From a virus (taxonomy: Duplodnaviria > Caudoviricetes): DNA of 57,176 nt. The stretch spans positions 1-57,176 of the IMG/VR virus record IMGVR_UViG_3300043446_003411; one strand, 5' to 3'. The notes under the pieces were generated by a model that saw only the letters and a list, made by a program, of their open reading frames with translations, searched no databases and had not been told where the DNA came from. Below, piece after piece: positions 33,864 to 54,015 of the stretch. A program made the translations under genes and the position numbers. Numbering within the stretch: the first letter of the stretch is position 1; each line of letters begins with the position of its first letter.

Positions 33864-34685
33864 TTGAATTCCGCCGGGACTTCGTCTAGGCTGGTCGCCG
33901 TGAACAGATACTCCTCGATTTTCGACCCAGCCGAATACGCCGAACTGGAGTCTCGTGTCAGTTATCGGAAGCACGGAGATCTCTGCCCGACGTGCAAGGG
34001 CACTGGGTACTACGAGTACAAGGGAGAGACACATGAATGCGAAAAAGACTATGACGGGATATGCATTCAAAGAAAACTGTTCCTCAGATACGAACTTGCG
34101 AACATCCCTCTAGATTATCACAGAATAGATTGGGCCGATTTCGATACACAGCCAGAAGCGAAGCAATGTATAGAGGCCTACGTCAACAATCTGGATAACG
34201 CAATCGACAAAGGTCTTGGGCTATATGTCAACAGCACCGGACTTGGGACCGGCAAAACGCTGATCGGTTGTCACGTTTTGAAAGAGGCTGTGAAGAAAAA
34301 TAACCGAGCATACTTCTGTCAGTTTATGGATCTGGTCAATATCACTAATGATCATTATCAGAAAATAGAAGACAAACTTCTGAATTCAGACATTGTGTGC
34401 ATTGATGACATAGTCTCATCGAGCATATCCGTTAAGCAGAACGATCTGTTCAAGTATCTGCTTGAGAAGACAATTAGGCATCGAGTTCATAATGAGATGT
34501 CAATCATAGTCACATCCAATTTGGAGAGTGACGAATTCCTCAAAGCATACGACAGAGTATTTTCTCTGCTTATGAGTAGCGCGTTTGAGATTAAGTTAAA
34601 GTCATCAATCGACTATCGTAGAGACTTTTTGGCAACAGAAATTGATGCACTTTTGCGGTCAAAAGAGATCGCACCGATAACCTAA
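33864..34685 (+). CDS. DnaC/IstB-like helicase loader ATPase
   Basis: N-terminal CPTC..C Zn motif, GTGKT, CIDDI, VTSN, DRVFS. Confidence 0.85.
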   Translation: MNSAGTSSRLVAVNRYSSIFDPAEYAELESRVSYRKHGDLCPTCKGTGYYEYKGETHECEKDYDGICIQRKLFLRYELANIPLDYHRIDWADFDTQPEAKQCIEAYVNNLDNAIDKGLGLYVNSTGLGTGKTLIGCHVLKEAVKKNNRAYFCQFMDLVNITNDHYQKIEDKLLNSDIVCIDDIVSSSISVKQNDLFKYLLEKTIRHRVHNEMSIIVTSNLESDEFLKAYDRVFSLLMSSAFEIKLKSSIDYRRDFLATEIDALLRSKEIAPIT

Positions 34686-34699
34686 AGAATTGTTCGATC

Positions 34700-34746
34700 C
34701 TACCACATCAAGACGATGCGGTTCTTTGAAATAAAACATATAGCGC
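34700..34746 (+). promoter_or_regulatory. tandem NrdR-box-like operators
   Basis: CTACCACATCAAGACG and ATAAAACATATAGCGC, starts 31 bp apart, directly upstream of the RNR gene. Confidence 0.45.
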
Positions 34747-34762
34747 CGAATTAGGAGATACG

Positions 34763-36700
34763 ATGACACAAGGTCATAACCTGCCAACAGACTACCAAAG
34801 ATTCATTCATATTAGCCGATACGCTAGATGGGTAGACTCCCTCGGTAGAAGAGAGACATGGGAGGAAACTGTTGATAGATATTTTGACTTCATCGAATCC
34901 AATCTTGCCAAAAAGAATGATTATAAATTGTCTGCAGAACTCAAGAAGGAGTTGCGTTCTGCAGTTCTAGACCTTGACATCATGCCGAGCATGAGAGCAC
35001 TTATGACTGCTGGTCCTGCGCTTGAGCGTGACAACATCGCTGGATATAACTGTTCGTATATTCCGATCAACAGTGTTCGTTCTTTTGACGAAATCCTGTA
35101 CATCCTTATGTGCGGCACCGGTGTTGGCTTCAGTGTAGAGAGACAGTTCGTCAGCGAACTGCCCGTCGTCAATGAGCATTTTGAGAACTCCCCGACCACC
35201 ATCATCGTTGAGGATTCAAAGGCTGGCTGGGCAAGAGCGCTGCGAGAACTGATCGCCATGCTTTACGCAGGCCATGTCCCCTCTTGGGATGTCAGCAAGG
35301 TTCGCCCTGCTGGTGCTCGGCTCAAGACTTTCGGCGGTCGTGCATCTGGGCCCGGTCCTCTTGAGGATCTTTTCCGTTTCTCAATCCGCACATTTCAAAA
35401 TGCCGCTGGCCGTAAACTGACAAGTCTTGAATGCCATGACCTTGTTTGCAAGATCGCAGATATCGTTGTTGTTGGTGGTGTTCGTCGTTCTGCTCTTATC
35501 TCCCTTTCCAATCTTACCGATGATCGTATGCGTCACGCTAAATCCGGCGCTTGGTGGGAGGATAATGTTCAACGCGCTCTCGCCAACAATTCTGTTTGTT
35601 ATACAGAGAAGCCGGAGATGAGTTCCTTCATGGAAGAGTGGCTATCTCTTTATCAGTCGAAGAGCGGTGAGCGCGGAATCTTCAATAGGGACTCAGCCAA
35701 GAAGCACGTTGCTCGCAACGGTAGGCGTGATGTCGAATGGGACTTCGGAACGAATCCTTGCTCTGAGATCATTCTACGCCCGTATCAGTTCTGCAATCTG
35801 ACCGAGGTTGTGGTTCGCGCTGAGGATACGCCGAAGGACATTGAACGCAAGATTCGTCTGGCCACGATCCTTGGGACCTTCCAAGCGACCATGACCGACT
35901 TCAAGTACCTTCGCAAAATCTGGAAGGACAACACAGAAGAAGAGCGCCTGCTGGGTGTTTCTTTGACCGGCATTCTGGACAATAAGTTCATGGCGAATCG
36001 ATCCAGTTCGTTGTCAGACGCTCTGGTTGGCTTCCGTGAAATGGCTGTCAAGACCAATGCTGAATTCGCCAAGAAACTCGGAATCAATCAGTCCGCCTCA
36101 ATCACATGCATCAAACCCAGCGGAACTGTTTCGCAGTTGGTTGACTCTGCGTCGGGCATTCATGCTCGTCATTCTGAATATTACATTCGTCGCGTTCGTG
36201 GAGACAAGAAGGATCCTCTTACTCAGTTCATGATTGACGCTGGCATTCCTTGTGAAGACGATGTGACGAATTCTGAGAATATTGCAGTGTTTTCTTTCCC
36301 GATGAAGTCTCCAAAGGGTGCCGTGCTTCGTGATGATATGAGCGCTCTTGAGCAGTTGGAACTGTGGAAAACGTATCAATTGGAATACACAGAGCACAAG
36401 CCTAGTATCACGGTTTCTGTCAAAGAGCACGAATGGATGGCGGTCGGTTCTTGGGTGTGGGACAACTTTGATTATGTGAGTGGCGTTTCGTTCCTGCCAC
36501 ATTCTGAGCACACCTATCGTCAGGCTCCTTACGAAGACATCGACAAGGACACCTACGAGAAGATGTTGTCGGAAATGCCCTCGACAATCGATTGGTCTCT
36601 TCTCGCCGACTACGAGCAGGAGGACAATACCGATGGTGTTCAGACGCTTGCCTGCTCGAATGGCGCTTGTGAGATCGTTGATGTTGGCATTTCGTCCTAG
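34763..36700 (+). CDS. nrdJ: class II (adenosylcobalamin) ribonucleotide reductase
   Basis: YNCSY, GTNPCSEI, KPSGT, C-terminal ACSNGACE; no beta subunit in the window. Confidence 0.93.
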   Translation: MTQGHNLPTDYQRFIHISRYARWVDSLGRRETWEETVDRYFDFIESNLAKKNDYKLSAELKKELRSAVLDLDIMPSMRALMTAGPALERDNIAGYNCSYIPINSVRSFDEILYILMCGTGVGFSVERQFVSELPVVNEHFENSPTTIIVEDSKAGWARALRELIAMLYAGHVPSWDVSKVRPAGARLKTFGGRASGPGPLEDLFRFSIRTFQNAAGRKLTSLECHDLVCKIADIVVVGGVRRSALISLSNLTDDRMRHAKSGAWWEDNVQRALANNSVCYTEKPEMSSFMEEWLSLYQSKSGERGIFNRDSAKKHVARNGRRDVEWDFGTNPCSEIILRPYQFCNLTEVVVRAEDTPKDIERKIRLATILGTFQATMTDFKYLRKIWKDNTEEERLLGVSLTGILDNKFMANRSSSLSDALVGFREMAVKTNAEFAKKLGINQSASITCIKPSGTVSQLVDSASGIHARHSEYYIRRVRGDKKDPLTQFMIDAGIPCEDDVTNSENIAVFSFPMKSPKGAVLRDDMSALEQLELWKTYQLEYTEHKPSITVSVKEHEWMAVGSWVWDNFDYVSGVSFLPHSEHTYRQAPYEDIDKDTYEKMLSEMPSTIDWSLLADYEQEDNTDGVQTLACSNGACEIVDVGISS

Positions 36701-36704
36701 TCTG

Positions 36705-36713
36705 TGTTAAAAT
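36705..36713 (+). promoter_or_regulatory. extended -10 promoter TGtTAAAAT
   Basis: Matches the TGnTAnnnT family; precedes the structured RNA. Confidence 0.55.
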
Positions 36714-36719
36714 CAAATC

Positions 36720-36820
36720 AAGCGATTTCCGTGCAACGGGGTGATGGCCGCACGGGGCCATGTCCGGTCAGAGTTTCCTCCTTTCGCTGATCGGGCTTGC
36801 GTTGTTCAGGCACCCCGTCT
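36720..36820 (+). ncRNA. unassigned structured RNA/leader with anti-SD loop
   Basis: Three helices plus a possible pseudoknot; loop AGTTTCCTCCTTTCG. Confidence 0.6.
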
Positions 36821-36824
36821 AAAA

Positions 36825-37535
36825 ATGTTTGACGAATATCTAACATCATATGGAGAGGGTTGGGTATTCGTTCTCCTTGTCGGTGCTCTCCTTGGGCTTC
36901 GTCATGCCACAGACCCTGATCATCTCTCGGCTCTACTAACTCTGCGGCTGAGGAAGAAGCAGAAGTCTCCGCATATGCTCGGGGCTTCATGGGGCTTGGG
37001 TCACGCCGTATCCATGATTGTTGTTGGCATACCTTTGATTTTCTTTTTCGGAGAACTTCCGGAGGATCTCCAGAGAGGTCTTGAGTTCGCTGTTGGCGTC
37101 ATGATCGCTGTTCTTGCGGCGAGAGTTTTGTGGGGCCTGATAACAATCAAAATAGATGATCACCCCCATGTCCATCATGATGGTCTTGAACATTCGCATC
37201 CCCATACGCACACAGGCTCCGGACACTCTCATCGCTCAAATCGATCTGCGGCATTCATAGGTCTTCTCCATGGGGCCGGTGGTAGCGCGGGCGTCGTTGC
37301 ACTTATTCTTAGCCGAATGCCCAATCACTGGATGGCTTCTATCGCTCTTGTGGTCGTATCGGTTTTTAGCGGTCTCTCTATGGCCCTCTGCTCATGGGTT
37401 CTTTGTCGTGGTCTTGACGCATCCGAAAGAATTGTCAACGTAAACCGAATGATCTTTATCGGATCAACATGTGCATTTTTGTTTGGAATATGGTATGCTT
37501 GCGCCGCATTTGAACTTGTCCCCTACCCCCTATAG
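36825..37535 (+). CDS. nickel/cobalt permease (NiCoT/UreH-like)
   Basis: RHATDPDH signature, His-rich loop, GLLHGAGGSA, about 6 TM helices. Confidence 0.85.
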   Translation: MFDEYLTSYGEGWVFVLLVGALLGLRHATDPDHLSALLTLRLRKKQKSPHMLGASWGLGHAVSMIVVGIPLIFFFGELPEDLQRGLEFAVGVMIAVLAARVLWGLITIKIDDHPHVHHDGLEHSHPHTHTGSGHSHRSNRSAAFIGLLHGAGGSAGVVALILSRMPNHWMASIALVVVSVFSGLSMALCSWVLCRGLDASERIVNVNRMIFIGSTCAFLFGIWYACAAFELVPYPL

Positions 37536-37547
37536 AAAGGAAAAGAA

Positions 37548-37799
37548 ATGGACATCAATAAATCCCTCCTACAACAGGCTGTCCTGAGAGCGGTTCGCTC
37601 ATTCATTCAGGCCTTCCTCGTTGTCTACCCCGGTCAGGCCCTGATCAACTGGGCGATGGGCACAGGAGAACTCGATACGAACCTCCTCCGTGCAGCCGCG
37701 ATCTCCGGCGGTGTCGCCGTTCTCTCGTTCCTCTGGAGATACCTCCTCGATCCTAGCCGCGTTCCCTCAATGGTTGACGCGCCGACTGACACTCACTAA
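37548..37799 (+). CDS. holin
   Basis: Two TM segments; RAVRSFIQAF (r1t-like); precedes the endolysin; AAGGA SD. Confidence 0.7.
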   Translation: MDINKSLLQQAVLRAVRSFIQAFLVVYPGQALINWAMGTGELDTNLLRAAAISGGVAVLSFLWRYLLDPSRVPSMVDAPTDTH

Positions 37800-37801
37800 A
37801 T

Positions 37802-38575
37802 ATGAAAACAATCAATCTCACCTCACCTCTCACCAAGGGTCCTGAAGTCAAGAAACTTCAGAGCCTGCTCAAGAAGAATCCTTACGGCTCTTTCTACAGA
37901 GACAAGGTCGATGGAGTCTTCGGCACATACACCGCGAACTCTGTCAAGTCAGCGAAGTACTGGCTCGGCTACCCGGAGAACGAGATCAAGGCTTTTGCTG
38001 GCGACCCGCTATCTGAGTACCTTGACGGCACGAGAGAATTGCCGATGCTTTATAAGGCTCGTCGCAAGAGCCGCCTTAAGAAGTATTCACAGAACCCTTC
38101 GCTTCGTCTTCGTGAGGGCGCACTCGCAAGTGCCATTCCGTTCATTGGCGTCAAGGAGTCTCCCGCTGGCTCCAACATCGTGATGTTCTCTCAGTGGTAT
38201 GGACTCATTGGTGCATGGTGCGCGATGTTTGTCACATACAACTACACTCAGGCGGGCAGCAAGGCGTTTGATAAGAACGCGGAGCGCTGGGCGTATTGTC
38301 CCTTCCTACTCGCCGACGCTCGTGCTGGTCGCAACTGGGTCAAGGAAGTCTCAATAGAGAATGTTCAGCCCGGTGATGTTGTTCTATATGATTGGGATAA
38401 GGATAGTCTTGCTGATCATGTCGGTATCTTCGAGGCATGGACAGATAAAAAGAAGACAAAATTTACAGCAATTGAAGGTAATACGAGCGCTACTGATAAT
38501 AGTAACGGCGGAGAGGTGGCTCGTCAGTCACGCACAAAGTCGAACGTTATCGCTTTCGTTCGTGTCCTGAAGTAA
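37802..38575 (+). CDS. endolysin (PG-binding + CHAP domain)
   Basis: VKKLQ..L..DGVFG..T; WCAMFV...DHVGI...IEGNT. Confidence 0.9.
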   Translation: MKTINLTSPLTKGPEVKKLQSLLKKNPYGSFYRDKVDGVFGTYTANSVKSAKYWLGYPENEIKAFAGDPLSEYLDGTRELPMLYKARRKSRLKKYSQNPSLRLREGALASAIPFIGVKESPAGSNIVMFSQWYGLIGAWCAMFVTYNYTQAGSKAFDKNAERWAYCPFLLADARAGRNWVKEVSIENVQPGDVVLYDWDKDSLADHVGIFEAWTDKKKTKFTAIEGNTSATDNSNGGEVARQSRTKSNVIAFVRVLK

Positions 38576-38598
38576 TCTGACCCAAACTTCGGAGTGGG

Positions 38599-38631
38599 AA
38601 AGGGGTCGCCTTGTGCGGCCCCTTTTCTTTT
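38599..38631 (+). terminator. intrinsic terminator
   Basis: AAAGGGGTCGC/GCGGCCCCTTT stem plus T tract. Confidence 0.85.
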
Positions 38632-38639
38632 GATAGACT
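38631..38639 (+). promoter_or_regulatory. extended -10 promoter TGaTAGACT
   Basis: Predicted +1 (about 38646) coincides with the closing helix of the downstream RNA. Confidence 0.55.
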
Positions 38640-38644
38640 CTTCA

Positions 38645-38734
38645 TGCGGGTTGACCAATGATCCGGTCATTTGCAGACTAGGCCACGACAGGCCACATCC
38701 TAGGAACGCACTGCACGTCCCTAGTTTGACCGCA
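38645..38734 (+). ncRNA. unassigned ~90-nt structured RNA upstream of tRNA-Gln
   Basis: TGCGG/CCGCA, TGACC/GGTCA and CAGACTAGG/CCTAGTTTG helices. Confidence 0.55.
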
Positions 38735-38738
38735 ACAG

Positions 38739-38809
38739 TGGGGGATCGTCTAAAGGCAGGACAACGGGTTTTGGTCCCGTGAATTGGGGTTCGAATCCCT
38801 GTCCCCCAG
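38739..38809 (+). tRNA. tRNA-Gln(TTG)
   Basis: TGGGGGA/TCCCCCA acceptor, ACGGG-TTTTGGT-CCCGT, GTTCGAATCC. Confidence 0.93.
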
Positions 38810-38810
38810 T

Positions 38811-39539
38811 ATGAGTAAAAAGAAAATCAAGTTCATCTCTAAGGACGCTATTTACGGTAGAGCGTTCACGCCCCCCGGCCCTGCTTCTAAAGACATACCC
38901 AAGTGGTATAAAGAAGAAGAAAGATATATGGGCGGGGAGAAGAGATGGCATAACGACGGCTATCACGCTAGATTCAATCATTCAGTTAAAGCCTGCCCAG
39001 CAGTATACGACTCGATCACGGCTGGCTATGTGTTTTATCTTGATGCGGATGTTCATATTGAAAAGAGTCCCGAAGGCGTTATCAATGTCTCACAGGCAAT
39101 TGATGACGACTATAGACTCGTTTCATTTCATGACATAAAACAGATCAGTAAATTTAATTTTGATAGAGAGTATTGGGACGATACGGTTATTTTTAAGTTT
39201 ATGACCGGATGGAGAATAGAGGTGCCCAAGGGGTACTCATGTCTTTACATGCATCCCATGTGGAGAGAAGAGACACCGTTTAAGATTCTTCCCGGCATAA
39301 TTGATCAAGACAGTTATGGGTTTGTCGCAAACTTTTTCTTCTTTATTAAAAGAGGGTTTGAGGGAACAATACCCAGTGGAACTCCTATTGGCCAAGTCAT
39401 TCCATTCAAAAGAGATGAATGGAGACATGAGGTCGAGTTGGGAACTAGAGAAGACTGGCAGACGATTTACATGAGCGTTAACCGAGAAATTGAAAACGGC
39501 CACAAGAAGAAGAACTATTCCAAAAAGAGATGGCTATGA
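38811..39539 (+). CDS. DUF6065-like protein
   Basis: IPKWYK..VKACPA..D....GY...W.I..P.GYS..PG.ID.D..GTPI.Q.IPFKR; paralogue of 47400..48113. Confidence 0.7.
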   Translation: MSKKKIKFISKDAIYGRAFTPPGPASKDIPKWYKEEERYMGGEKRWHNDGYHARFNHSVKACPAVYDSITAGYVFYLDADVHIEKSPEGVINVSQAIDDDYRLVSFHDIKQISKFNFDREYWDDTVIFKFMTGWRIEVPKGYSCLYMHPMWREETPFKILPGIIDQDSYGFVANFFFFIKRGFEGTIPSGTPIGQVIPFKRDEWRHEVELGTREDWQTIYMSVNREIENGHKKKNYSKKRWL

Positions 39540-40252
39540 ACATCGCGGCAATACCGGTTAAGAACAAGATTGAGTGGACTGCCCCTCTTGTAGAGCATTT
39601 GCTTCTGCACGATGATCTAGACCAGATCTGGATATACGATAACGGCAGTACGGATATAACTCGTGAATGGGTAGAGAACCGCAAAAACATTGACCAGAGA
39701 ATTACGATTTTTGATGTTCCGGATATGAAGATCTACGATATGTGGAACGATATGATTCTTATTGCCGCCGAAGAGTATAAGACTTCTAATCTTGCAATTC
39801 TGAACAACGATATTAGACTGCCGCCCTACGCCATTAGAGATATGTCTTTAATGATGCGCAAAGAGGACTATCAGATTGCCGCTGTGGATCCGACCAGAAC
39901 CGGACTGTACACCTTCTCAATTGGCTGGTGGGACCTGTCGCGAGCCCTGCCTCATCCAATTCAACCGTATTGCGAAAGGCTGCATATTGGAGACAGGATT
40001 GGCTGGGCCTTCGTTGTTGCGGCAGAGTTCTGGAAGAATGAGAAGTACGCGATTCATCCGGACTATATTCATTATTTTGGCGATGATGATCTCTATCGCA
40101 GAGCGATGCATCGCGGTGGTAATGCCTGCATTGTGCGTGGCATTGGATGCGATCATGCGGAATCAACCACTGGTGGAATCGACGGCGATCTTTGGAAGCA
40201 CGATGAGGATATCTATATGAGGTTGTGGGATGGCACATCAAGCGCAATTTGA
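39530..40252 (+). CDS. glycosyltransferase family 2
   Basis: IPV, YDNGSTD, LNNDI, YFGDDD. Confidence 0.85.
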   Translation: MAMNIAAIPVKNKIEWTAPLVEHLLLHDDLDQIWIYDNGSTDITREWVENRKNIDQRITIFDVPDMKIYDMWNDMILIAAEEYKTSNLAILNNDIRLPPYAIRDMSLMMRKEDYQIAAVDPTRTGLYTFSIGWWDLSRALPHPIQPYCERLHIGDRIGWAFVVAAEFWKNEKYAIHPDYIHYFGDDDLYRRAMHRGGNACIVRGIGCDHAESTTGGIDGDLWKHDEDIYMRLWDGTSSAI

Positions 40253-40760
40253 TTTTGTTCACTCAGTCAAGAACCGCTATCCAGATATGTTCGGTGGTCG
40301 AACGAAAGTTCTAGAGGTCGGTAGTCTCAACATCAACGGGACTATCCGCAATCTTTTTTCAACATCGTTTTATATCGGAATTGATCTTGAACTGGGCCCC
40401 GGAGTAGATTTGGCAGCGCCCGGTCATACAGTTCTTTTTGCTGACCGATTCTTTGATCTCTCAATCAGTTGCGAATGTTTTGAACATAATCCATACTGGG
40501 TTGAGACATTTTTGAATATGGTGAGAATGACAGACAAAATGGTCGTCTTTACCTGCGCAACAACAGACAGGCCGGAGCACGGAACGACGAGAACAAGCGA
40601 AGCCGAGTCCCCGTTCACAACAGGCATATGGGACTATTATCAGAACCTCACAGAAGATGATTTCAAAGAGTACATAGAACTAGAAAAGCATTTCGCTTTT
40701 TATGAATTCACTTCTAATGAAACAGCACACGATCTATATTTCTGGGGAATCAGAAAATGA
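40230..40760 (+). CDS. class I SAM-dependent methyltransferase
   Basis: VLEVGS.NING, GID...GPGVD, ECFEH. Confidence 0.85.
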   Translation: MAHQAQFDFVHSVKNRYPDMFGGRTKVLEVGSLNINGTIRNLFSTSFYIGIDLELGPGVDLAAPGHTVLFADRFFDLSISCECFEHNPYWVETFLNMVRMTDKMVVFTCATTDRPEHGTTRTSEAESPFTTGIWDYYQNLTEDDFKEYIELEKHFAFYEFTSNETAHDLYFWGIRK

Positions 40761-41458
40761 AAGCGTCTATTGTTATACCCACATACGACAGCGTCCATCT
40801 AATCGAAGACTGTCTTCGGTCACTGTTGGAGCGTGTTGACGCAGAGGTAATTGTTGTTGACAACGGATCCAGAGAATACTCTACAAAAGTATTTAATGAT
40901 CAAATCATTTATCTGCGCTTCTGTGAAAACCTTGGTTTCTCTCGGGCTTGCAACATGGGCGCAAAAGTATCTTCCGGCGACATAATCATTTTTCTCAACA
41001 ATGATACGATTATCAGCAATGACTTTGTCACGCCGATCCTTAATGTTTTTGCTCATGATGACGCCGGCATTGTCGGCAGCAAATTGCTTTATGAGAACGG
41101 CGACATTCAGCATGCCGGAATTGATTTTGAGATCAGAGACGGGAACCTTGAGGGGCGAAACATTCACGAGGATATGCCGTTCGGTGAAGTGGCCGCTGTT
41201 ACAGGCGCATGTCTTGCAATCAAGAGAGACCTGTTCTTTTCTCTGAATGGTTTTGATGAGGCGTACTGGGTCGGAAACGAAGACAGCGATCTCTGCTTCA
41301 GAGCGCGAGAAGCCGGAGAGAAGGTTGTCTATCAGCCCCTGTCAGTCCTTACTCATCTTGAGAGTTGTTCGGGATCGGCTCGCTGGGTGGCCGTCACAGA
41401 GAACGTGCGGATCCTGACTGAGCGTTGGGCGAACAAGCCAGAGGTGTGGATGCTATGA
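40757..41458 (+). CDS. glycosyltransferase family 2
   Basis: SIVIP, VVDNGS, LNND, VTGAC, GFDE, EDSDLC. Confidence 0.9.
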   Translation: MKASIVIPTYDSVHLIEDCLRSLLERVDAEVIVVDNGSREYSTKVFNDQIIYLRFCENLGFSRACNMGAKVSSGDIIIFLNNDTIISNDFVTPILNVFAHDDAGIVGSKLLYENGDIQHAGIDFEIRDGNLEGRNIHEDMPFGEVAAVTGACLAIKRDLFFSLNGFDEAYWVGNEDSDLCFRAREAGEKVVYQPLSVLTHLESCSGSARWVAVTENVRILTERWANKPEVWML

Positions 41459-41499
41459 TGAATCGTCCCCGCCCGCGAGGCGCATTTTTATAAAGACAG

Positions 41500-41582
<83 letters not shown>

Positions 41583-41583
41583 A

Positions 41584-41668
41584 GGATGGTTGGCCGAGTG
41601 GTTGAAGGCACCAGTCTTGAAAACTGGCAAGAGTAACATCTTCGGGGGTTCGAATCCCTCACCATCCG
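41584..41668 (+). tRNA. tRNA-Ser(TGA)
   Basis: CCAGT-CTTGAAA-ACTGG; long variable arm. Confidence 0.93.
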
Positions 41669-41670
41669 TT

Positions 41671-41757
41671 GGAGCGGTGGCCGAGTGGCTTAAGGTACCT
41701 CCCTGCTAAGGAGGCGTGTGGGAAACTGCACCGTTGGTTCGAATCCAACCCGTTCCG
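41671..41757 (+). tRNA. tRNA-Ser(GCT)
   Basis: CCTCC-CTGCTAA-GGAGG; long variable arm. Confidence 0.93.
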
Positions 41758-41766
41758 TGATATAAT
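41758..41766 (+). promoter_or_regulatory. extended -10 promoter TGaTATAAT
   Basis: Consensus match inside the tRNA cluster. Confidence 0.6.
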
Positions 41767-41785
41767 GAATTCGGCACTGCTGCCA

Positions 41786-41857
41786 TGGTCGGTAGTTCAA
41801 CGGCAGAACCCCGCACTGTTAATGCGGTTGTTGCAGGTTCGAATCCTGCCCGACCAG
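41786..41857 (+). tRNA. tRNA-Asn(GTT)
   Basis: CCGCA-CTGTTAA-TGCGG. Confidence 0.92.
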
Positions 41858-41859
41858 TC

Positions 41860-41933
41860 GCCGGGCTAACTCAGTTGGCCAGAGTGCCTCCCTTGTAAGG
41901 AGGAAGTCGTCGGTTCGAATCCGACGCCCGGCT
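41860..41933 (+). tRNA. tRNA-Thr(TGT)
   Basis: CCTCC-CTTGTAA-GGAGG. Confidence 0.93.
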
Positions 41934-41934
41934 C

Positions 41935-41943
41935 TGCTATAAT
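41935..41943 (+). promoter_or_regulatory. extended -10 promoter TGcTATAAT, leaderless
   Basis: 6 nt before ATG at 41950. Confidence 0.7.
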
Positions 41944-41949
41944 TTGATC

Positions 41950-42399
41950 ATGAAGGAGGATGACCTGATTGATCTTGCGCATCGAATAGCGCAGCGTTCT
42001 CCGGTCCGCCGATTTCAGACTGGCGCGGTCATTGAGAAGAACGGAGTCATTCTATCCACCGGTTGGAGCCATGCCTCTGATCGTAATATGGCATGCTATC
42101 GATCCATGCATGCGGAACTTCACGCGATATCTAGATGTGATGTGAGGGATACCGTCGGATCTACAATAGCCATTGTGACCCTATCTAGGAAATCCGGCAA
42201 CCGTACCGACGGTACCCCCTGTCTTTTCTGTCTACGGAACATTCAAAAATTCGGCATAGAGAAGATCATATGCACAACCACAGGTGGCGGATCCAAAGTC
42301 ATTTACGCAGATCTTCTGGACATGTCAAAGATATCCGATAAAATGGACATGTCCGCGAAAAAGAAATATGTTGGCCACATCCTCTCATATGCGAGTTGA
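41950..42399 (+). CDS. zinc-dependent cytidine/dCMP deaminase family protein
   Basis: HAE...PCxxC. Confidence 0.85.
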   Translation: MKEDDLIDLAHRIAQRSPVRRFQTGAVIEKNGVILSTGWSHASDRNMACYRSMHAELHAISRCDVRDTVGSTIAIVTLSRKSGNRTDGTPCLFCLRNIQKFGIEKIICTTTGGGSKVIYADLLDMSKISDKMDMSAKKKYVGHILSYAS

Positions 42400-44290
42400 G
42401 ACATTCACTCCGGAAATAGAAGACGAACTTTCCTCCCTCACTGCAGAGGCTCGAAAGAAAATTCTATTTATTGAGAACCACCCGATGATTGAGATGCACT
42501 GGTATGTCTCCGCTTTCGACAAGTCTTTCATAAAAGATTTTTCTTTCCTGAACAGTCGTCCGATCATTAATCCGTTTCAGATTCGTCGTCTTGCCGCCGA
42601 AGCGGAAAGACAGGGCTACCGAATGATCTGGTTGAGCGATCCAACCGAGGTGTTGGATTGGATCGACTCGCTTGACAACGAGCCCGACGTTCTCCTGCAG
42701 AGCGAACTTCCGGGAACAATCAGCGGCTTTCTCCCTTTTCAGATACAGGGATACAACTTTCTAAAGACGAAGCAAGCAGGGATAGCCAACTGGTCAACAG
42801 GAACGGGTAAAAGCGTTCTGGCCTGCGGTCTGGTTAAACACCATTTCGAGAACAAGAACTTTGATGTCTGTCTCTGGGTGGTAAAAACTCACAACAAGAT
42901 CAACACTCAAAGAACCATGGATCGCCTGACCGGGCTGGGCGAGCACTCAGTTGTGATTGACGGCTCTAGGAAAAAGCGCATCACTCTCTACGAGCAGGCA
43001 GAGAAGATAGACCGACCAATCATCATTCTGAACTACGAAAAGTTTCGAGATGATCCTGCAGACATATTGCGACTGATCGAAGGCAAAAGCGTATTCATTA
43101 TCTGGGATGAGATGCCGACGAAACTGAAGAACAGAGACACCAAGTTGTATCGAGCAATAGTCTCGCTGCTTTATCAGAACAAAAGCAAATTGTCTCTTGA
43201 GAAAATCAAGCCAAAGCACATCTCTCAGGTGATGCTTTCGGCAACACCAATTGAGAACTCCCCTGAGGATTTCTTCAACTGTGTTCGCCTAATGGATCCC
43301 ACCGTATTCGGAACGGTCAAGGAGTTTCATTCAAAGTATGTCGCTTCATTTAGTCGTTTCGGATGGAAACAGCCGGAGAGATGGAAGAACCTCGACCTGA
43401 TGGGCGCGAAGGCAGCGCATATGACGCATCAGGTTGACAAGAACGATAAAGACATTGCGTCTCAGTTTCCCAACGTCATTGATGAGATCGTCTATGTTGA
43501 CATGGGAGAAGGCCACAAGAGGATCTATGACCTTCTCATGGGCCAATACCAGAAAGACATGTCGCAGGATCTTGATGCGCCCAACATGCTCTCTAGAATC
43601 AATGTTGCACAGATGCTTCTCAATCACCCAAGGTCAGTTCTCATTAGCGCAGATCGCAGGGAGGATGCAATTCAATCCACCCTTGATGGGATACCAGACT
43701 TTGGGGGATCTGAGTTCGCACGTCGTCTTGTGGCGAGCGTTGGTCGAGAGGCTTTTGCCAAAACCGAATGTGAGAAACTTGATGTGCTCCAAGACATTTT
43801 GGAGTCGAATGACGGCAAGTGCATTGTGTTCACGTCCATGAATGCAACGCTCATACCGCTCATTAGTGAGGCCCTCGACAAGTGGAAGTGCGGACATGTC
43901 GTTTATCACGGTTCACTGTCAATGAAAGAAAAACAAGAAGCAGAAGACCGTTTCAAAAACGATCCAAACATTCGAGTTTTCGTATCCTCTGACGCCGGCT
44001 CTGACTCAATTAATCTAGAGATTGCGAAGACTGTTGTTCACTACGATATGCCATGGAAATGGTCAACGCTAATCCAACGACAGAATAGAGCCCACCGCAT
44101 CACATCAGAGCACGATCATGTTCGCTATTACACTCTGATGTTTTCCAACACCGTAGAAGAGCGCAAGAGAGATAAGATTCTTTTGAAGGAGAATTTTCAC
44201 GATGCCGTGCTGCGTGGATCGGTTGCAGAGATTTCTGGAGGAGCGAGACTTGGCCGCAAAGAACTTAAGTATATCTTGTTCGGCTCCTAG
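42389..44290 (+). CDS. SNF2-family helicase
   Basis: TGTGKS, WDEM, LSATPIENSPED, QRQNRAHRI. Confidence 0.88.
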   Translation: MRVETFTPEIEDELSSLTAEARKKILFIENHPMIEMHWYVSAFDKSFIKDFSFLNSRPIINPFQIRRLAAEAERQGYRMIWLSDPTEVLDWIDSLDNEPDVLLQSELPGTISGFLPFQIQGYNFLKTKQAGIANWSTGTGKSVLACGLVKHHFENKNFDVCLWVVKTHNKINTQRTMDRLTGLGEHSVVIDGSRKKRITLYEQAEKIDRPIIILNYEKFRDDPADILRLIEGKSVFIIWDEMPTKLKNRDTKLYRAIVSLLYQNKSKLSLEKIKPKHISQVMLSATPIENSPEDFFNCVRLMDPTVFGTVKEFHSKYVASFSRFGWKQPERWKNLDLMGAKAAHMTHQVDKNDKDIASQFPNVIDEIVYVDMGEGHKRIYDLLMGQYQKDMSQDLDAPNMLSRINVAQMLLNHPRSVLISADRREDAIQSTLDGIPDFGGSEFARRLVASVGREAFAKTECEKLDVLQDILESNDGKCIVFTSMNATLIPLISEALDKWKCGHVVYHGSLSMKEKQEAEDRFKNDPNIRVFVSSDAGSDSINLEIAKTVVHYDMPWKWSTLIQRQNRAHRITSEHDHVRYYTLMFSNTVEERKRDKILLKENFHDAVLRGSVAEISGGARLGRKELKYILFGS

Positions 44291-44295
44291 CGCTA

Positions 44296-44304
44296 TGCTA
44301 GGAT
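44296..44304 (+). promoter_or_regulatory. extended -10 promoter TGcTAGGAT
   Basis: 6 nt before the first base of tRNA-Ile. Confidence 0.6.
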
Positions 44305-44310
44305 TGAATC

Positions 44311-44384
44311 AGGCGGTGGGAGTACTGGTTGACTCATCCACTCTTATAAGGTGGACTTGCAGGGTTCGATTCCCTGACCGCCTA
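44311..44384 (+). tRNA. tRNA-Ile(TAT), non-canonical
   Basis: AGGCGGT/ACCGCCT acceptor, GAGT/ACTC D stem, TCCACT-CTTATAA-GGTGGA, CAGGG-TTCGATT-CCCTG. Confidence 0.75.
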
Positions 44385-44386
44385 CT

Positions 44387-44551
44387 TGGAAGGAAAATTG
44401 ACGCGAGATCGCGGGTTAGGCGTACCCCTCCTTCCATTCATTGTCGGTGCCTTTATACTAGTCAAACGAGGTTCCGGCCCCCGGTCCTGAGCATGACTTC
44501 TAAACTGCTCAACTTTTAATACTTAGTTTCGGTTAAAAGCGGCACATAAAG
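44387..44551 (+). ncRNA. two unassigned structured elements between tRNA-Ile and HNH
   Basis: TGGAAGGA/TCCTTCCA domain; H-type pseudoknot at 44483-44510; GTGCC/GGCAC closure. Confidence 0.5.
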
Positions 44552-44554
44552 AGT

Positions 44555-45025
44555 ATGAAGACATGCTCTAAGTGCAAGCAAAACTTGCCGCTAACCGAAT
44601 TTAACAAGAAGTCTAATCGCAAAGACGGGCTTCAACCTTTCTGCCGCGAATGCAATCGCGCTCGCTCCCGTCAGTACTATGCTGAGAATCGGGACAAGCA
44701 TCTTTCTGTTGTAAGCAAAAGAAAAATAGAGCAGATAGCAAAAGCAAACGCTTTTGTTGCTGACTTTCTGTCAGAGAAAAATTGTGCCGACTGCGAAGAA
44801 AAGAACATTTTGGTTTTAGAGTTTGATCATATCTTTGGTGACAAAAGAAACAATATATGCACAATGATAGGAAACGGTTATTCCGTAGACTCAATTAAAG
44901 AAGAAATAAGCAAATGCGAGGTTGTTTGCCGAAATTGCCATTCTATTCGGACTCATCGTCGCGGCAACACATTCAAGTGGCGCTACCTTCAAGAACGTGC
45001 TAGTCTCACAGAGACGGGATCGTAG
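44555..45025 (+). CDS. HNH endonuclease with N-terminal zinc finger
   Basis: CSKC...CREC; CADC...LEFDH...KCEVVCRNCH. Confidence 0.9.
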   Translation: MKTCSKCKQNLPLTEFNKKSNRKDGLQPFCRECNRARSRQYYAENRDKHLSVVSKRKIEQIAKANAFVADFLSEKNCADCEEKNILVLEFDHIFGDKRNNICTMIGNGYSVDSIKEEISKCEVVCRNCHSIRTHRRGNTFKWRYLQERASLTETGS

Positions 45026-45089
45026 CCAAGCGGTAAGGCAGCGGACTTTTAATCCGAAGATTTCGAAGGTTCGAATCCTTCCGGTCCCA
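45016..45089 (+). tRNA. tRNA-Lys(TTT)
   Basis: GGGATCG/CGGTCCC acceptor; CGGA-CTTTTAA-TCCG. Confidence 0.9.
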
Positions 45090-45092
45090 TAT

Positions 45093-45114
45093 GGTTCGAA
45101 TCCTTGTGGACCCA
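45093..45114 (+). pseudogene. orphan tRNA 3' fragment
   Basis: GGTTCGAATCCTTGTGGACCCA: T loop plus acceptor 3' strand only. Confidence 0.65.
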
Positions 45115-45132
45115 TCAAAATACGGAGCCAAC

Positions 45133-45342
45133 ATGAATTTTCTTTACTTTCTAGCGGACAACTTATTCCGCTTCAAATATCGAGATCCTTATTCTACTCA
45201 TGAGAATCGAACCTTTTGGGCTCTAGATGTTTTTGAAGAAGAGAACGAGAAGATGCGTCGTGACTTCTTTATCATGGGTTTGGTTTTCGGGGCTGTGATT
45301 TCCATTCTTCTTGTCGGAGCACTATGGCTAATCGCCCGCTAG
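45133..45342 (+). CDS. small membrane protein
   Basis: GGAG SD; C-terminal TM helix. Confidence 0.65.
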   Translation: MNFLYFLADNLFRFKYRDPYSTHENRTFWALDVFEEENEKMRRDFFIMGLVFGAVISILLVGALWLIAR

Positions 45343-45452
45343 GAACTGAACCCTCCTTTCAAAGAGAGTTTCAGATTAATGTCGAACCCCCTCGCGAGGA
45401 AGTCTCTTTCCGCGAAAAAATAAAAGCCATCTTACGCAAGAAGAACAAATGA
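45324..45452 (+). CDS. small hypothetical protein (MANRPLGTEPSFQREF...)
   Basis: 42 aa; GGAG SD; ATGA overlap with the next ORF. Confidence 0.5.
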   Translation: MANRPLGTEPSFQREFQINVEPPREEVSFREKIKAILRKKNK

Positions 45453-45649
45453 CAGAAGAAGAAAAAGTCAGGCTTCTTTTTCACTGCATCCTTGAGATCG
45501 CCAAATCCTGCAAGATGCGTGGTTGTCCGCAGATCAATCCGGAGACCCCGTGCTGGTGCATGCAAGATGCTCAGACGATCTATGATGCGATGACGCTACG
45601 CGGCCTTGACCTCGTATACCTTAGGTCAGATAATGACCCTCAGACTTAA
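45449..45649 (+). CDS. small Cys-rich protein
   Basis: C..GC....PCWC. Confidence 0.6.
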   Translation: MTEEEKVRLLFHCILEIAKSCKMRGCPQINPETPCWCMQDAQTIYDAMTLRGLDLVYLRSDNDPQT

Positions 45650-46202
45650 GCGTATAATCGTACATCGCAATAGCGGATGCGCTTCCGACATTGATTGATC
45701 GCGTTGATCCAACCTGAGGGATGTAGACAATGTCGTCTGCCTGCGCGAGACTATTATTTGAGAGCCCGATCTGTTCTTGCCCAAGAACAATGATTGACTT
45801 GTCCCACCACCTATAGCCAGTTATCGGCTGGGCCTCTTCCACATTATCAATCGCGACAATACGGTGTCTCTCGTAATTTGAGAAAACCTCGTCAATGTTT
45901 TCCGCGTGGTGGATGTGTTCGTATTTGTGCGTCCCACAGGTGCCCCTGCGGTCGAATCTCTTTCGACCAACGATCCAGACGCATTTACAAAGGAACGCGT
46001 TGGAGTTCCTGACAACCGTCGCGATATTGAAATCGTAGGCGAAGTTCTCACAGACCACAACAAGTTCAGACCTCTTCTTGTCGAGGTCTGCCACGATTGC
46101 TTCGTGCTCCCAGTACTTGTAATGGTCGATGACGTTCCGCCTATCATGAGGCGAAATCTGTTCCAGTCCATCAGGGAAGTTCGGATTCAGTATCTTGGTC
46201 AC
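45621..46202 (-). CDS. SpoU/TrmH-family RNA 2'-O-methyltransferase
   Basis: N.....NIA..VR, LGQEQIGLS, IPQVGSTRSINVGSA (SPOUT motifs 1-3); GGAGG SD. Confidence 0.9.
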   Translation of the reverse strand: MTKILNPNFPDGLEQISPHDRRNVIDHYKYWEHEAIVADLDKKRSELVVVCENFAYDFNIATVVRNSNAFLCKCVWIVGRKRFDRRGTCGTHKYEHIHHAENIDEVFSNYERHRIVAIDNVEEAQPITGYRWWDKSIIVLGQEQIGLSNNSLAQADDIVYIPQVGSTRSINVGSASAIAMYDYTLKSEGHYLT

Positions 46203-46308
46203 TCTTTTCCTCCAACTGCTTTTGCAGCGTATCAACGACCTCTTGCAATTGCAAAATCTGCAATTGAAGTTGTCCTAGGACGAGAGCGACCCTGTCGTTT
46301 AAACTCAT
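46171..46308 (-). CDS. small coiled-coil protein (MSLNDRVALVLGQLQLQILQLQE...)
   Basis: 45 aa; leaderless start after TGCTATAAT. Confidence 0.6.
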   Translation of the reverse strand: MSLNDRVALVLGQLQLQILQLQEVVDTLQKQLEEKSDQDTESELP

Positions 46309-46314
46309 GGTTTA

Positions 46315-46323
46315 ATTATAGCA
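46315..46323 (-). promoter_or_regulatory. extended -10 promoter TGcTATAAT, leaderless
   Basis: 6 nt before ATG at 46308. Confidence 0.7.
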
Positions 46324-46357
46324 AAGAAAAAGGGCGACAGACCGAAGTCTGCCGCCC
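46323..46357 (-). terminator. intrinsic terminator with UUCG tetraloop
   Basis: GGGCGGCAGAC-TTCG-GTCTGTCGCCC-TTTTTCTT. Confidence 0.9.
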
Positions 46358-46370
46358 CAGTTCTTTAGGA

Positions 46371-46700
<330 letters not shown>

Positions 46701-52029: not shown

Positions 52030-52508
52030 TATGTTGCAAACTCTATTAATCGAATGTGGCTTATTCCATCATGTGCACAAGACGTATTGCAAACATGAGT
52101 GCCGCTCGGGTAGTTTCCGAACCTGAGGCTGTAAGTCTGAGCAGAGGTACTTGCGGGCGAGTGCAGGAAGTGCTTAGACCAATCGTAGATCACCATTCTC
52201 CACGTCCCATTCCATCCGCTTCGGCCTAGCGCTACGTTCTGCGTATTATTGTGAACCCAAAAATAGCCAAGGCTCCAACTGCCATCCGCAATGTCTCCAC
52301 GAAAGTGACAATTGACGTAAATGAGTATTTGACTCGTCGTAGATGTTGGGGTTATCGTTGCGGTCGCAATCTCGTTTTGGGTCGACCAGTTATTTACGGA
52401 AAGAGTTGCGGTAAAAGGGTTATCAACAATTTGAATAACTTTTTTGGGATAGGATATTTTTCCAGCGCCGACTTCGGTTATTGTGTTGTTAGGAAATACT
52501 ATAGCCAT
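52029..52508 (-). CDS. beta-rich tail-associated protein (paralogue 1 of 3)
   Basis: MAIVFPNN...VIQ...ITPTSTTS.IL...EFA. Confidence 0.7.
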   Translation of the reverse strand: MAIVFPNNTITEVGAGKISYPKKVIQIVDNPFTATLSVNNWSTQNEIATATITPTSTTSQILIYVNCHFRGDIADGSWSLGYFWVHNNTQNVALGRSGWNGTWRMVIYDWSKHFLHSPASTSAQTYSLRFGNYPSGTHVCNTSCAHDGISHIRLIEFAT

Positions 52509-54015
52509 ATTGGTACTCCCTAATATTTTGAATGAATTCGGTGTTGTCGAGCATACGTTCCATGATCGCTTCGGCGTTATACTCTCCCACCTCCCAGACG
52601 GTTTTGGCGAGATCGTGCTGGCCGAAGAAATCCAATTCTCTTTGCGCTTCCTTTTTGCCGAAGTAGCCGAGACCGATAAGAATCCAGTTATAGAGTGATG
52701 CTCCGGCGTGTCCCGGATATTGCTCTAAATCGTTTGGTCTAAGCATTCTGCACTTTTGAAGTTCAATAATCATTTTGCTGGATTCGGTGAGCGGTTCTCC
52801 GGTCCCCATCCAGCGCCAAAACTCAGAGTCTGTTCTTTGACTCGCGTAGTGAATATTCAGAAAATCTTTAAAGTCATCGTACATCTTTGACATTACGCGA
52901 TTGTATATCCCAACAGACGCTTCGTTGCATGTGTCTTCGCGAGTGTCTCTAAGATATTGAAACACAAATGTGTTTAGTTGGATTACGGTGCTATGAATAC
53001 TTGTCGCCTCAAGAGGCTCCGCGAACGCAGCAGACAGGCCTGTGAAAAGACAGTTCTTAAACCAAAGTTTTTCTGAGCGTCCGGTTTCAAAATTGAACAC
53101 ACGGATTGGTTCGATCTCTCTGCCCAGAGTATTTTCAATCTCAGCAAGAGCATCCCCATGAGAAACAAATGAATCATCAAACACATAGCCACAACCCCAG
53201 CGGTCCTGCGTTGGGATCATCCACATCCATCCCGCTTTCTGTGCCCAAGCAATCGTGACAGGATCGATTTTCTCGTCTTCCTCGTGAGGAATAAGAAATG
53301 GCATTGCGGTATTGACGGGAAGGTGTTCCCGATAAGACCTCCAACCAATCCCTAGTCTCTTTGCGAACACACGAGCAAAACCCGTGCAGTCAACAAAGAA
53401 ATCTGCTTCTATCGTCTGGCCGTTGCTGAGGTTGATTGATGTTATGAATCCCGTTTCATCAACGGCAATGTCCACAACTTCGGAGTCAATGCTAGTTACG
53501 CCTTCTCCGCAAACCTTTTTAAAATACTTGCCGACCTTATGGGCGTCAAAGTGATATGCGTGACTATGCATGTTGATGATCTTCTCGGTCTTTTCTTCGG
53601 GGTAAAAAGACGACAGGGATCTTTCAATATACTTTCCGTCAAGACTTGCGGTATGAAAGGGCAAATCATTAACAAGAGCATGACAAAGTAGATAGTCTGT
53701 TCCAACGGAATTTGAGGTCGGGCCATCAAGCGGAGCAATATACTCATGACCGAGTTCCCTCCAGTCACGATGCTTAATGCCGAGTTTTATTGTCGCATTG
53801 GTTTCGCGAAGAAAATCCCCCTCATCGCATCCGTAGTCCCATGCATTGCCTTGAATGATGTCTGTTAGATATCCGGTGCTGCCTTCACCTGCGCCAACGA
53901 TTCCAATTTTGCTGGACTCAATGACGGTCACATCATGGCTATCGCCCTGAACTTTTGTGATCATTAGCGCGGCCAGCCAGCCTGCTGTTCCTCCGCCGAC
54001 AATCGCAATCCTCAT
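52489..54015 (-). CDS. flavin-dependent (tryptophan) halogenase family protein
   Basis: GGGTAGW, GAGEGS, ATIKLGI (catalytic Lys), WMWMIP, FAEPLEATSI. Confidence 0.92.
   Translation of the reverse strand: MRIAIVGGGTAGWLAALMITKVQGDSHDVTVIESSKIGIVGAGEGSTGYLTDIIQGNAWDYGCDEGDFLRETNATIKLGIKHRDWRELGHEYIAPLDGPTSNSVGTDYLLCHALVNDLPFHTASLDGKYIERSLSSFYPEEKTEKIINMHSHAYHFDAHKVGKYFKKVCGEGVTSIDSEVVDIAVDETGFITSINLSNGQTIEADFFVDCTGFARVFAKRLGIGWRSYREHLPVNTAMPFLIPHEEDEKIDPVTIAWAQKAGWMWMIPTQDRWGCGYVFDDSFVSHGDALAEIENTLGREIEPIRVFNFETGRSEKLWFKNCLFTGLSAAFAEPLEATSIHSTVIQLNTFVFQYLRDTREDTCNEASVGIYNRVMSKMYDDFKDFLNIHYASQRTDSEFWRWMGTGEPLTESSKMIIELQKCRMLRPNDLEQYPGHAGASLYNWILIGLGYFGKKEAQRELDFFGQHDLAKTVWEVGEYNAEAIMERMLDNTEFIQNIREYQYGYSIS

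Follow-up and report, generated by a model that had tools for sequence, protein, structure and literature searches.

What does a conserved, structured RNA do when it lies between the gene for a B12-dependent reductase and that for a Ni/Co-type permease, and which of its neighbours does it serve? The question is raised by the window considered here, the whole stretch of 57,176 bases that was analysed (IMG/VR virus record IMGVR_UViG_3300043446_003411), in which a 124-nucleotide (nt) gap between nrdJ and the permease gene contains such an RNA on the + strand. The sequence-only reading of this DNA had proposed a new metal- or cofactor-responsive leader of the permease or, as a second option, an independent small RNA (sRNA). 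The comparisons described below make it very probable that the phage encodes a genuine structured RNA here, one that is under selection and forms a new family, and good confidence can be placed in its being conserved and independent of the permease. The best guess for its role, held with low confidence, is that of a leader or sRNA of the lysis unit (holin and endolysin) that lies beyond the permease.

At its 3' end the RNA is bounded by the point at which homology with two related contigs, L011 and X12, stops. It is predicted to form a three-way junction of helices P1, P2 and P3, in which the 5' tail and the P2 loop may also pair as a pseudoknot. The three helices had been proposed from the letters alone, and direct reading confirms each of them at its coordinates. 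In the lines below the basis for each part is given, namely the minimum free energy (MFE) structure, the centroid, the RNAalifold consensus, alignment with L011 or plain reading of the sequence.

36727-36823, + strand: whole conserved RNA module, 97 nt, from UUCCGUGC through GUCUAAA; homology with L011 and X12 stops at 36823
36729-36734, + strand: 5' tail CCGUGC, candidate pseudoknot strand, complement of the P2 loop; read from the sequence
36736-36743, + strand: 5' strand of P1, ACGGGGTG (as RNA ACGGGGUG); MFE, centroid and RNAalifold; invariant
36744-36761, + strand: P2 hairpin AUGGCC-GCACGG-GGCCAU (strands 36744-36749 and 36756-36761, loop 36750-36755); MFE, centroid and RNAalifold
36762-36796, + strand: P3 hairpin of 10 base pairs (bp), GTCCGGTCAG (36762-36771) with CTGATCGGGC (36787-36796); MFE, centroid and RNAalifold
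36772-36786, + strand: P3 loop, 15 nt, AGTTTCCTCCTTTCG (as RNA AGUUUCCUCCUUUCG); unpaired in MFE and centroid; invariant
36797-36810, + strand: J3/1 linker of 14 nt, shortened to 13 nt in L011 and more variable than any other part, with 5 of the 11 differences from L011
36811-36818, + strand: 3' strand of P1, CACCCCGT (as RNA CACCCCGU), followed by conserved CUAAA (36819-36823); MFE, centroid, RNAalifold and L011 alignment

For 36727-36822 the MFE and centroid structures obtained with ViennaRNA coincide and consist of P1, P2 and P3 (-40.1 kcal/mol, z -2.09, 5 of 200 shuffles as good), and a longer stretch of 141 nt that includes the flanks gives a z-score of -1.59 (13 of 200). The same helices make up both MFE and centroid structures of the L011 RNA (-37.2 kcal/mol, z -2.54) and the RNAalifold consensus of window and L011. 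The - strand folds at the level of its shuffles (-30.5 kcal/mol, z -0.52, 52 of 200), and the two G·U pairs of P3 on the + strand become A·C mismatches there, which bears out the suggestion that the G-U pairs favour the + strand. Complementarity of the P2 loop GCACGG (36750-36755) to CCGTGC at 36729-36734, also pointed out beforehand, is exact. The alternative pairing of GCAACG with CGTTGT is present in the window and is not kept in L011, which has GGTTAT. By itself the thermodynamics is moderately above chance, which is suggestive and not decisive. A cmscan of the window with Rfam 15 gave no match at gathering scores; at E<=10, 36600-36950 gave only a spurious match to lncRNA MEG8_3 (16 bits, gathering score 40) and 1780-2010 of L011 no credible match, in agreement with the remark that neither a cobalamin nor a NiCo consensus could be seen.

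The evidence for selection comes from comparison with relatives. L011 is an IMG/VR contig that was found with a two-part DNA pattern (L103, from the JGI metagenomes, is the same 15,707-nt contig). Over the RNA 84 of 95 columns are identical, a count that no 95-column stretch of nrdJ exceeds, the DNA identities being 76-77% for nrdJ (85% for its protein), 70% for the holin gene and 62% for the endolysin gene. When the whole L011 contig is compared, only the tRNA genes and the block with the RNA are conspicuous among the conserved stretches. Little or nothing differs in the first 39 nt of the RNA, in the P3 loop or in its final 20 nt, and all 11 differences fall in the P3 stem or J3/1. Five of the P3 pairs are invariant, two change on one side from wobble to Watson-Crick (U·G to C-G and G·U to G-C), two show double compensatory changes from G-C to A-U (41-75 and 45-71) and one is broken (U-A to U·U).

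Parts of the stretch are contained in 15 freshwater metagenome runs from 6 studies, none of them an RNA run. Logan contigs of four runs were compared with the window, of which X3, X7 and X12 gave alignments and X11 none. X3 and X7 have no listed differences within the RNA. The X12 contig (242 nt) has 23 listed substitutions and 3 indels in 36634-36721, at the end of nrdJ and in the promoter spacer, whereas 36722-36823 has one listed substitution only, 36767 G>A, by which pair 46-70 goes from G·U to A-U; up to four of its 28 differing letters are not itemised and their positions cannot be placed. P2 is invariant in the window, L011, X3, X7 and X12.

A more diverged copy is suggested by a protein. 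P0012, a permease open reading frame (ORF) from Logan (58% identical), has a 27-residue N-terminal extension, MAARGYAELEFPPFASS, that resembles the window leader translated in the permease frame, MAARGHVRSEFPPFADR, and keeps MAARG and EFPPFA, which correspond to P2 and the P3 loop. The extension may represent a translated, diverged copy of the RNA, as inferred from the protein only. On back-translation all 10 P3 pairs are possible together in register, against 7-9 of 10 in controls with slid partners; three flipped P3 pairs (44-72, 45-71 and 48-68) and a change of the P2 pair 25-38 (G25-C38) to G·U would then be forced. Taken over these comparisons, the pattern of differences argues that the RNA is under purifying selection.

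The family is very small in the collections searched. A covariance model (R1) built from the window and L011, which it scores at 129 and 126 bits, found no match in 80 and 79 other nrdJ-bearing viral loci, in three permease loci or in the remaining DNA-pattern matches. The two IMG/VR scans based on nrdJ gave at least 80 loci each, all listed loci being at most 68% identical, and closer relatives may exist beyond these; a scan with the permease alone gave no relatives, the permease alignment gave three loci, none with the RNA, and the holin-based scan returned only L011's own contig. DNA patterns matched 8 and 20 stretches in IMG/VR, where L011 is the sole true relative, 11 in the JGI metagenomes, where L103 is the only true match, and 26 in GTDB genomes, none of them full-length. 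By blastn against INPHARED phages a 1.6-kb query was matched in nrdJ alone (126 records) and an RNA-only query gave two 24-nt chance matches (E = 3), and a protein-word search with the translated leader (P0001 residues 1-40) gave no candidates.

The genes and sites that adjoin the RNA in the window are these:

34763-36700, + strand: nrdJ, adenosylcobalamin-dependent ribonucleotide reductase (RTPR/NrdJ-like, 645 amino acids (aa)); Pfam Ribonuc_red_lgC and RNR-II_ins_dom
36684-36713, + strand: sigma-70-type promoter-like site, TTGGCA (36684-36689), 18-nt spacer, TG (36705-36706), TAAAAT (36708-36713); 10 of 12 matches
36825-37535, + strand: NiCoT-superfamily permease (236 aa; RHATDPDH as HX4DH motif; His-rich loop); weak match to Pfam NicO
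37531-37540, + strand: ribosome-binding site (RBS) of the holin, TATAGAAAGG; read from the sequence
37548-37799, + strand: holin-like gene (ATG at 37548, 83 aa); Pfam Phage_r1t_holin, 25.7 bits, cutoff 26.9
37802-38575, + strand: endolysin (PG_binding_1 and CHAP); domain matches

The permease ATG at 36825, taken as the start because the closest homologues are of about 238 aa and align from their first residues, lies 6 nt (CTAAAA) 3' of P1 and lacks a purine-rich Shine-Dalgarno (SD) sequence, just as the sequence-only reading had stated. In L011 the stop of nrdJ is followed by the promoter, the RNA, 62 nt of spacer, the holin and the endolysin, with no permease, and the ORF that comes after the RNA there is 71% identical to the window holin. 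In X12, GUCUAAA is followed by TATAGAAAGGCAATAT, which resembles the holin RBS of the window (TATAGAAAGGAAAAGAAATG) and that of L011 (ACAGAAAGGTAGTTATG), so that the RNA appears to run directly into a holin-type RBS with no permease between. In two other phage contigs (L002 and L003) the gene for a permease homologue (66% and 53% identical) touches or overlaps the gene before it, and a leader RNA is missing. RNA and permease occur together in the window, in X3/X7 and, by translation, in P0012. Given the RNA without the permease and the permease without the RNA, the two therefore assort independently, and the permease looks like an insertion between RNA and holin, where it was probably inserted in the window phage. 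Since the RNA is retained where the permease is absent, a permease-specific metal riboswitch is unlikely, and the lysis genes are probably those to which the RNA belongs. The proposed tie to the Ni/Co permease did not withstand the homologue search and survey of downstream genes, holin following the RNA in both L011 and X12, and with it a metal- or cofactor-responsive permease leader is disfavoured; the second option, that of an independent sRNA or leader, still stands.

The border between RNA and permease has a further feature in X3 and X7. After 36848 these contigs have 8 extra letters, and the sequence then resumes at 36817; in the resumed stretch the permease start is more diverged, with 19 differences in 175 nt. 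The junction looks like a short duplication or recombination scar, which fits a mobile permease insertion.

How, then, might the RNA act on the lysis genes? It would be transcribed from its own sigma-70-type extended -10 promoter overlapping the end of nrdJ, whose final codons hold the -35, and would form the promoter-proximal leader of the holin-endolysin transcription unit, possibly also being released as an sRNA. The extended -10 had been picked out from the sequence, and the promoter-like site is kept in three variants: TTGGCA-18-TGtTAAAAT in the window, TTGGCG-17-TGcTACAAT in L011, with the TG in the same place, and that of X12, in which 36710 A>C changes TAAAAT to TACAAT. With 4 nt fewer between the -10 and the first conserved base in L011 and X12, transcription is predicted to start a few bases before UUCCGUGC. 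Three sites in the 14-kb + strand block reach 10 of 12 matches, and only that at 36684-36713 has the TG; promoter-like sites in the block number 13 against 16.1 expected from shuffles, and are thus not above shuffles. No terminator-like site occurs at 36700-36830 in a scan that permits loops of 3-8 nt, P3 being out of its reach, and between 36823 and the holin there are only weak matches inside the permease ORF (37105-37122 and 37282-37300). Nor does the RNA have the form of an intrinsic terminator of nrdJ, P1 being followed by CUAAAAA and no GC-rich hairpin with a U tract being found in the scan. The lysis genes lie within a replication-gene block that has no terminator after nrdJ.

The mechanism would reside in the P3 loop. 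Its invariant 12-nt pyrimidine part, UUUCCUCCUUUC, consists of what we take to be the letters of the actinobacterial 16S rRNA 3' tail; GATCACCTCCTTTCT was found once in each of three of the five Actinomycetes-class genomes tested, presumably at the 16S 3' end, as expected. Because it carries these letters the loop can pair with SD sequences, its perfect complement being GAAAGGAGGAAAC. The nearest candidate partner is the SD of the holin, AGAAAGG, which is common to all three arrangements (window, L011 and X12) and is separated from the RNA by about 9 nt in X12, some 57 nt in L011 and some 715 nt in the window. It is tentatively proposed that UUUCCUCCUUUC pairs with purine-rich SD sites, in the first place that of the holin, that this pairing, in cis or in trans, would repress translation of the lysis genes, and that such a hold-back would help to set the time of lysis for a cassette within an early/replication gene block.

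Several observations weigh against this account. The duplex between the loop and the holin initiation region is only modest (-11.9 kcal/mol); it is among the best 1.8% of 38,106 18-nt windows and lies outside the top 30 duplex sites. Extended complementarity to the loop was found at none of the gene starts of the window. The varying distance between RNA and holin SD disfavours one fixed cis pseudoknot, and, loop and SD both being invariant, covariation between them is absent. As no terminator was found after the RNA, a discrete sRNA is no more than a candidate, and no RNA run that contains the stretch was found among the 17 runs listed. The covariation in P3, based on two DNA sequences and one single-base variant, is not significant, its shuffle control reaching the observed value in 114 of 500 cases. 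P1, P2 and the pseudoknot, being invariant, are untouched by the variation test; all six pseudoknot pairs are the same in window and L011, so that covariation speaks neither for nor against them. Lastly, the permease event can be read in two directions, with loss in L011 and X12 in place of insertion in the window phage.

A specific target of the loop within the window was rejected, the top sites of the duplex scan not being gene starts. With at most one mismatch the loop complement occurs in two other places, neither an SD, which gives three matches in total against 1.89 expected. Nor do the counts indicate a widespread hairpin module with an anti-SD loop: the 14-mer occurs in 5 of 401 Actinomycetes-class genomes, at or below chance by our own estimate. 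Among 43 pattern matches outside the family, three are flanked by a stem of 7 bp or more; the number expected after permutation of the flanks is 1.1, so the excess is weak.

Similar hairpins were seen at individual loci. In a contig of Nonomuraea sp. (L128, 1346-1380, - strand) a 15-bp hairpin carries the P3 loop region letter for letter in its own loop region of 17 nt, GAGUUUCCUCCUUUCGC. The hairpin occupies an intergenic position with an SD about 20 nt further on, and the surrounding region, which includes HTH_17 and AAA_25 genes, resembles an integrated element. The hairpin occurs as a single copy in the genome and is matched by the covariance model at E = 6e-5. Two more hairpins with UUUCCUCCUUU(C) in the loop are found in L010 (6118-6150) and L151 (about 1480-1520, - strand); their neighbours are a phage tail-tube gene, which precedes one of the hairpins, and, downstream of the other, a gene for a cell-wall hydrolase (SLT + amidase) in an actinomycete genome.

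Other functions for the RNA have to be weighed against control of lysis genes by SD pairing. It could be a trans-acting sRNA or decoy, whose loop, copying the 16S anti-SD tail, binds host or phage SD sequences or baits a host factor by which the 16S tail is recognised. A strong promoter-like site of its own, the seed-like 12-nt loop on a stable stem, invariant across all variants, and an apparent indifference to what lies downstream (holin at three distances, or permease) would all suit such an RNA, and the near-invariant 39 nt at its 5' end suggest contacts beyond secondary structure. However, neither a terminator nor a defined 3' end was found, the loop has no preferred target within the 57 kb, and RNA runs are missing from the listed runs with the stretch; this function is regarded as rather unlikely. 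A related reading, which has only a slim chance of being correct, is a phage-made mimic of the ribosomal anti-SD tail, a stable scaffold that displays UUUCCUCCUUUC and acts as a decoy. The RNA might titrate SD-led messages, favouring SD-less phage messages such as that of the downstream permease, or might bait host ribonuclease toxins that cut at or next to the anti-SD during abortive infection. According to PMC12274833 and PMC12620021, the actinobacterial toxins MazF-mt11 and RelE1 remove the anti-SD, and the former states that MazF-mt3 and MazF-mt6 cut at U|CCUU and UU|CCU. Both pentads occur in the P3 loop, and a decoy is conceivable because toxins that remove the anti-SD or cut near it are published for Actinobacteria.

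An element of the lysis or late transcript that works at the level of transcription or stability, either put-like or as a leader acting on RNA polymerase, or through a 5' structure that shields the mRNA from 5'-end-dependent decay or steers its processing, is unlikely. It would explain why the predicted start is kept a few nt before the first conserved base in three promoter variants, and it would work whatever gene lies downstream; the position directly upstream of lysis genes, in an early-type block where read-through from nrdJ needs control, is also consistent with it. Yet apart from the weak matches within the permease there is no terminator to overcome between RNA and endolysin, and the invariant 12-nt loop identical to the anti-SD is left unexplained. 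A riboswitch or other sensor of a different signal that controls the lysis genes is a doubtful candidate. The three-way junction, the possible pseudoknot, the conserved junction and loops and the covarying stem are what such a sensor might have, but the sequences are too few, no expression platform is recognisable, the spacing to the holin SD is not conserved and Rfam gives no match.

A Ni2+/Co2+- or cobalamin-sensing riboswitch of the adjacent permease, the first proposal of the sequence-only reading, is very unlikely. Formation of P1 could gate initiation, since the AUG follows it by 6-7 nt without an SD (in the window, and in P0012 by translation), the neighbours are a B12-dependent reductase and a NiCoT-like transporter, and the junction and loops are conserved as in an aptamer. 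Against this, no NiCo, cobalamin or other Rfam family is matched at E<=10 in window or L011, the RNA is retained with compensatory changes where the permease is absent, permease homologues in two other phage contigs lack the RNA, and there is no evident expression platform, with neither a terminator nor an SD to sequester. Also very unlikely is the absence of a functional RNA, that is, a DNA-level site (operator, origin or recombination site) built of inverted repeats, or chance hairpins beside a promoter: P1, P2 and the CCGTGC/GCACGG repeat are invariant and would equally fit protein-binding palindromes, the z-scores are modest, and homology stops precisely at the 3' border, as it would where a recombination module ends, but the changes in P3 keep pairing through G·U intermediates that are meaningful only in + strand RNA, the - strand folds at shuffle level and the loop is invariant, not the repeats alone.

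Four further candidates were rejected. Translation from AUG 36744 would run on into the permease gene of the window, which allows a small ORF across the RNA there; the L011 frame is shifted by a 1-nt indel and ends right after P1, and the substitutions are non-synonymous. Read-through of the nrdJ stop codon is contradicted by frames that differ between window and L011, and a gene on the - strand with its SD in the loop by the poor fold of that strand and a 113-aa antisense ORF that overlaps nrdJ. As to a tRNA or tmRNA, ARAGORN found no gene for either at 36600-36950.

The wider setting of the RNA is a fragment of an uncultured freshwater phage genome, with an estimated completeness of 39% and a G+C content of 48%. 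Genes for DNA polymerase, DnaB-like helicase, terminase, portal and tail fibre lie on the - strand. The + strand block (33864-46571) holds, in order, a DnaC-like loader, nrdJ, the 124-nt gap with the RNA, permease, holin and endolysin, followed by tRNA genes, a methyltransferase and a helicase. The holin-endolysin cassette (37548-38575) is embedded in this replication and nucleotide-metabolism block, and the structural genes, on the opposite strand, do not adjoin it. Seven tRNA genes are present, five of them in one cluster (38739-38809, 41500-41933, 45016-45089); that at 38739-38809 is 97% identical to its L011 counterpart and is the most conserved stretch between both phages. An unusual phage gene is the 508-aa ORF at 52489-54015 (- strand), which matches a PHROG annotated as tryptophan halogenase (E = 2.6e-100).

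The B12-dependent ribonucleotide reductase gene adjoins that of the NiCoT-like permease with its HX4DH motif and His-rich loop (34763-37535). The nrdJ product scores 334.8 bits against NCBIfam TIGR02505 RTPR (cutoff 340). The permease scores 23.2 bits against Pfam NicO, under the cutoff of 27.7, and matches NCBIfam TIGR00802 weakly; with scores below both curated cutoffs its substrate and direction of transport are uncertain. The two genes may be a phage auxiliary pair that couples cobalt supply to B12-dependent dNTP synthesis. The permease beside the reductase is probably a separately acquired gene and not the regulatory target of the RNA.

Among known systems, the NiCo (czcD) and cobalamin riboswitches resemble the RNA in neighbourhood only, with a NiCoT-like permease downstream and a gene for a B12 enzyme upstream. 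They differ in that the RNA matches no covariance model even at E<=10, the cobalamin and AdoCbl-variant models included, in window or L011, and in that it persists without the permease; the consistent association of NiCo riboswitches with Ni/Co transporter genes is not seen here (L011, X12, L002 and L003). SAM-II and preQ1-II type riboswitches and comparable autoregulatory leaders hide the SD in a pseudoknot. In X12 the holin SD, about 9 nt after P1, could similarly form a pseudoknot with the P3 loop, but the distance is a different one in L011 (about 57 nt) and in the window (about 715 nt), and there is no family match.

Promoter-proximal RNAs before phage lysis genes are exemplified by the 6S leader of lambda pR', with antitermination by Q, and by the put RNA of HK022, and the lambda S 'sdi' stem-loop sets the holin and antiholin starts. 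The phage RNA is like them in lying directly after a promoter and, in the arrangement of L011 and X12, which looks ancestral, immediately upstream of the holin and its lysis cassette, and a role in lysis timing is plausible. It differs from them in that it has no tR'-like or other strong downstream terminator and no twin put-type stem-loops, in that its hairpin does not overlap the holin start and in that this lysis cassette lies among replication genes; no search was aimed at a Q-like gene. If the RNA is real, it constitutes an unclassified structured RNA family of uncultured freshwater phages, probably of Actinobacteria, that heads lysis genes, and control of lysis timing at the RNA level is poorly known outside lambda-like phages.

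In a limited search of the literature on phage-encoded anti-SD small RNAs and freshwater actinophages no such element was found, which is no proof of its absence. The pyrimidine-loop sRNAs of Gram-positive bacteria, among them actinobacterial 6C RNA and staphylococcal RNAIII and RsaE, occlude SD sites. With these the phage RNA shares a C/U-rich apical loop on a stable stem that is complementary to SD sequences, the loop being unpaired in the MFE and centroid structures of both window and L011, and a promoter-like site of its own, which is conserved. It differs in that no terminator-like site follows P1, in that a single loop of 12 nt spells out the 16S tail where they have several short C-rich loops, in its three-way junction and possible pseudoknot and in being phage-encoded, and it matches no Rfam family, those of 6C, RsaE and RNAIII included. 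An RNA that displays the exact anti-SD would give a phage a simple route by which to interfere with, or to borrow, SD recognition. In principle, then, its way of working would be most like that of the Gram-positive pyrimidine-loop sRNAs, without belonging to their families, and its present value is that of a well-defined candidate for experiment.

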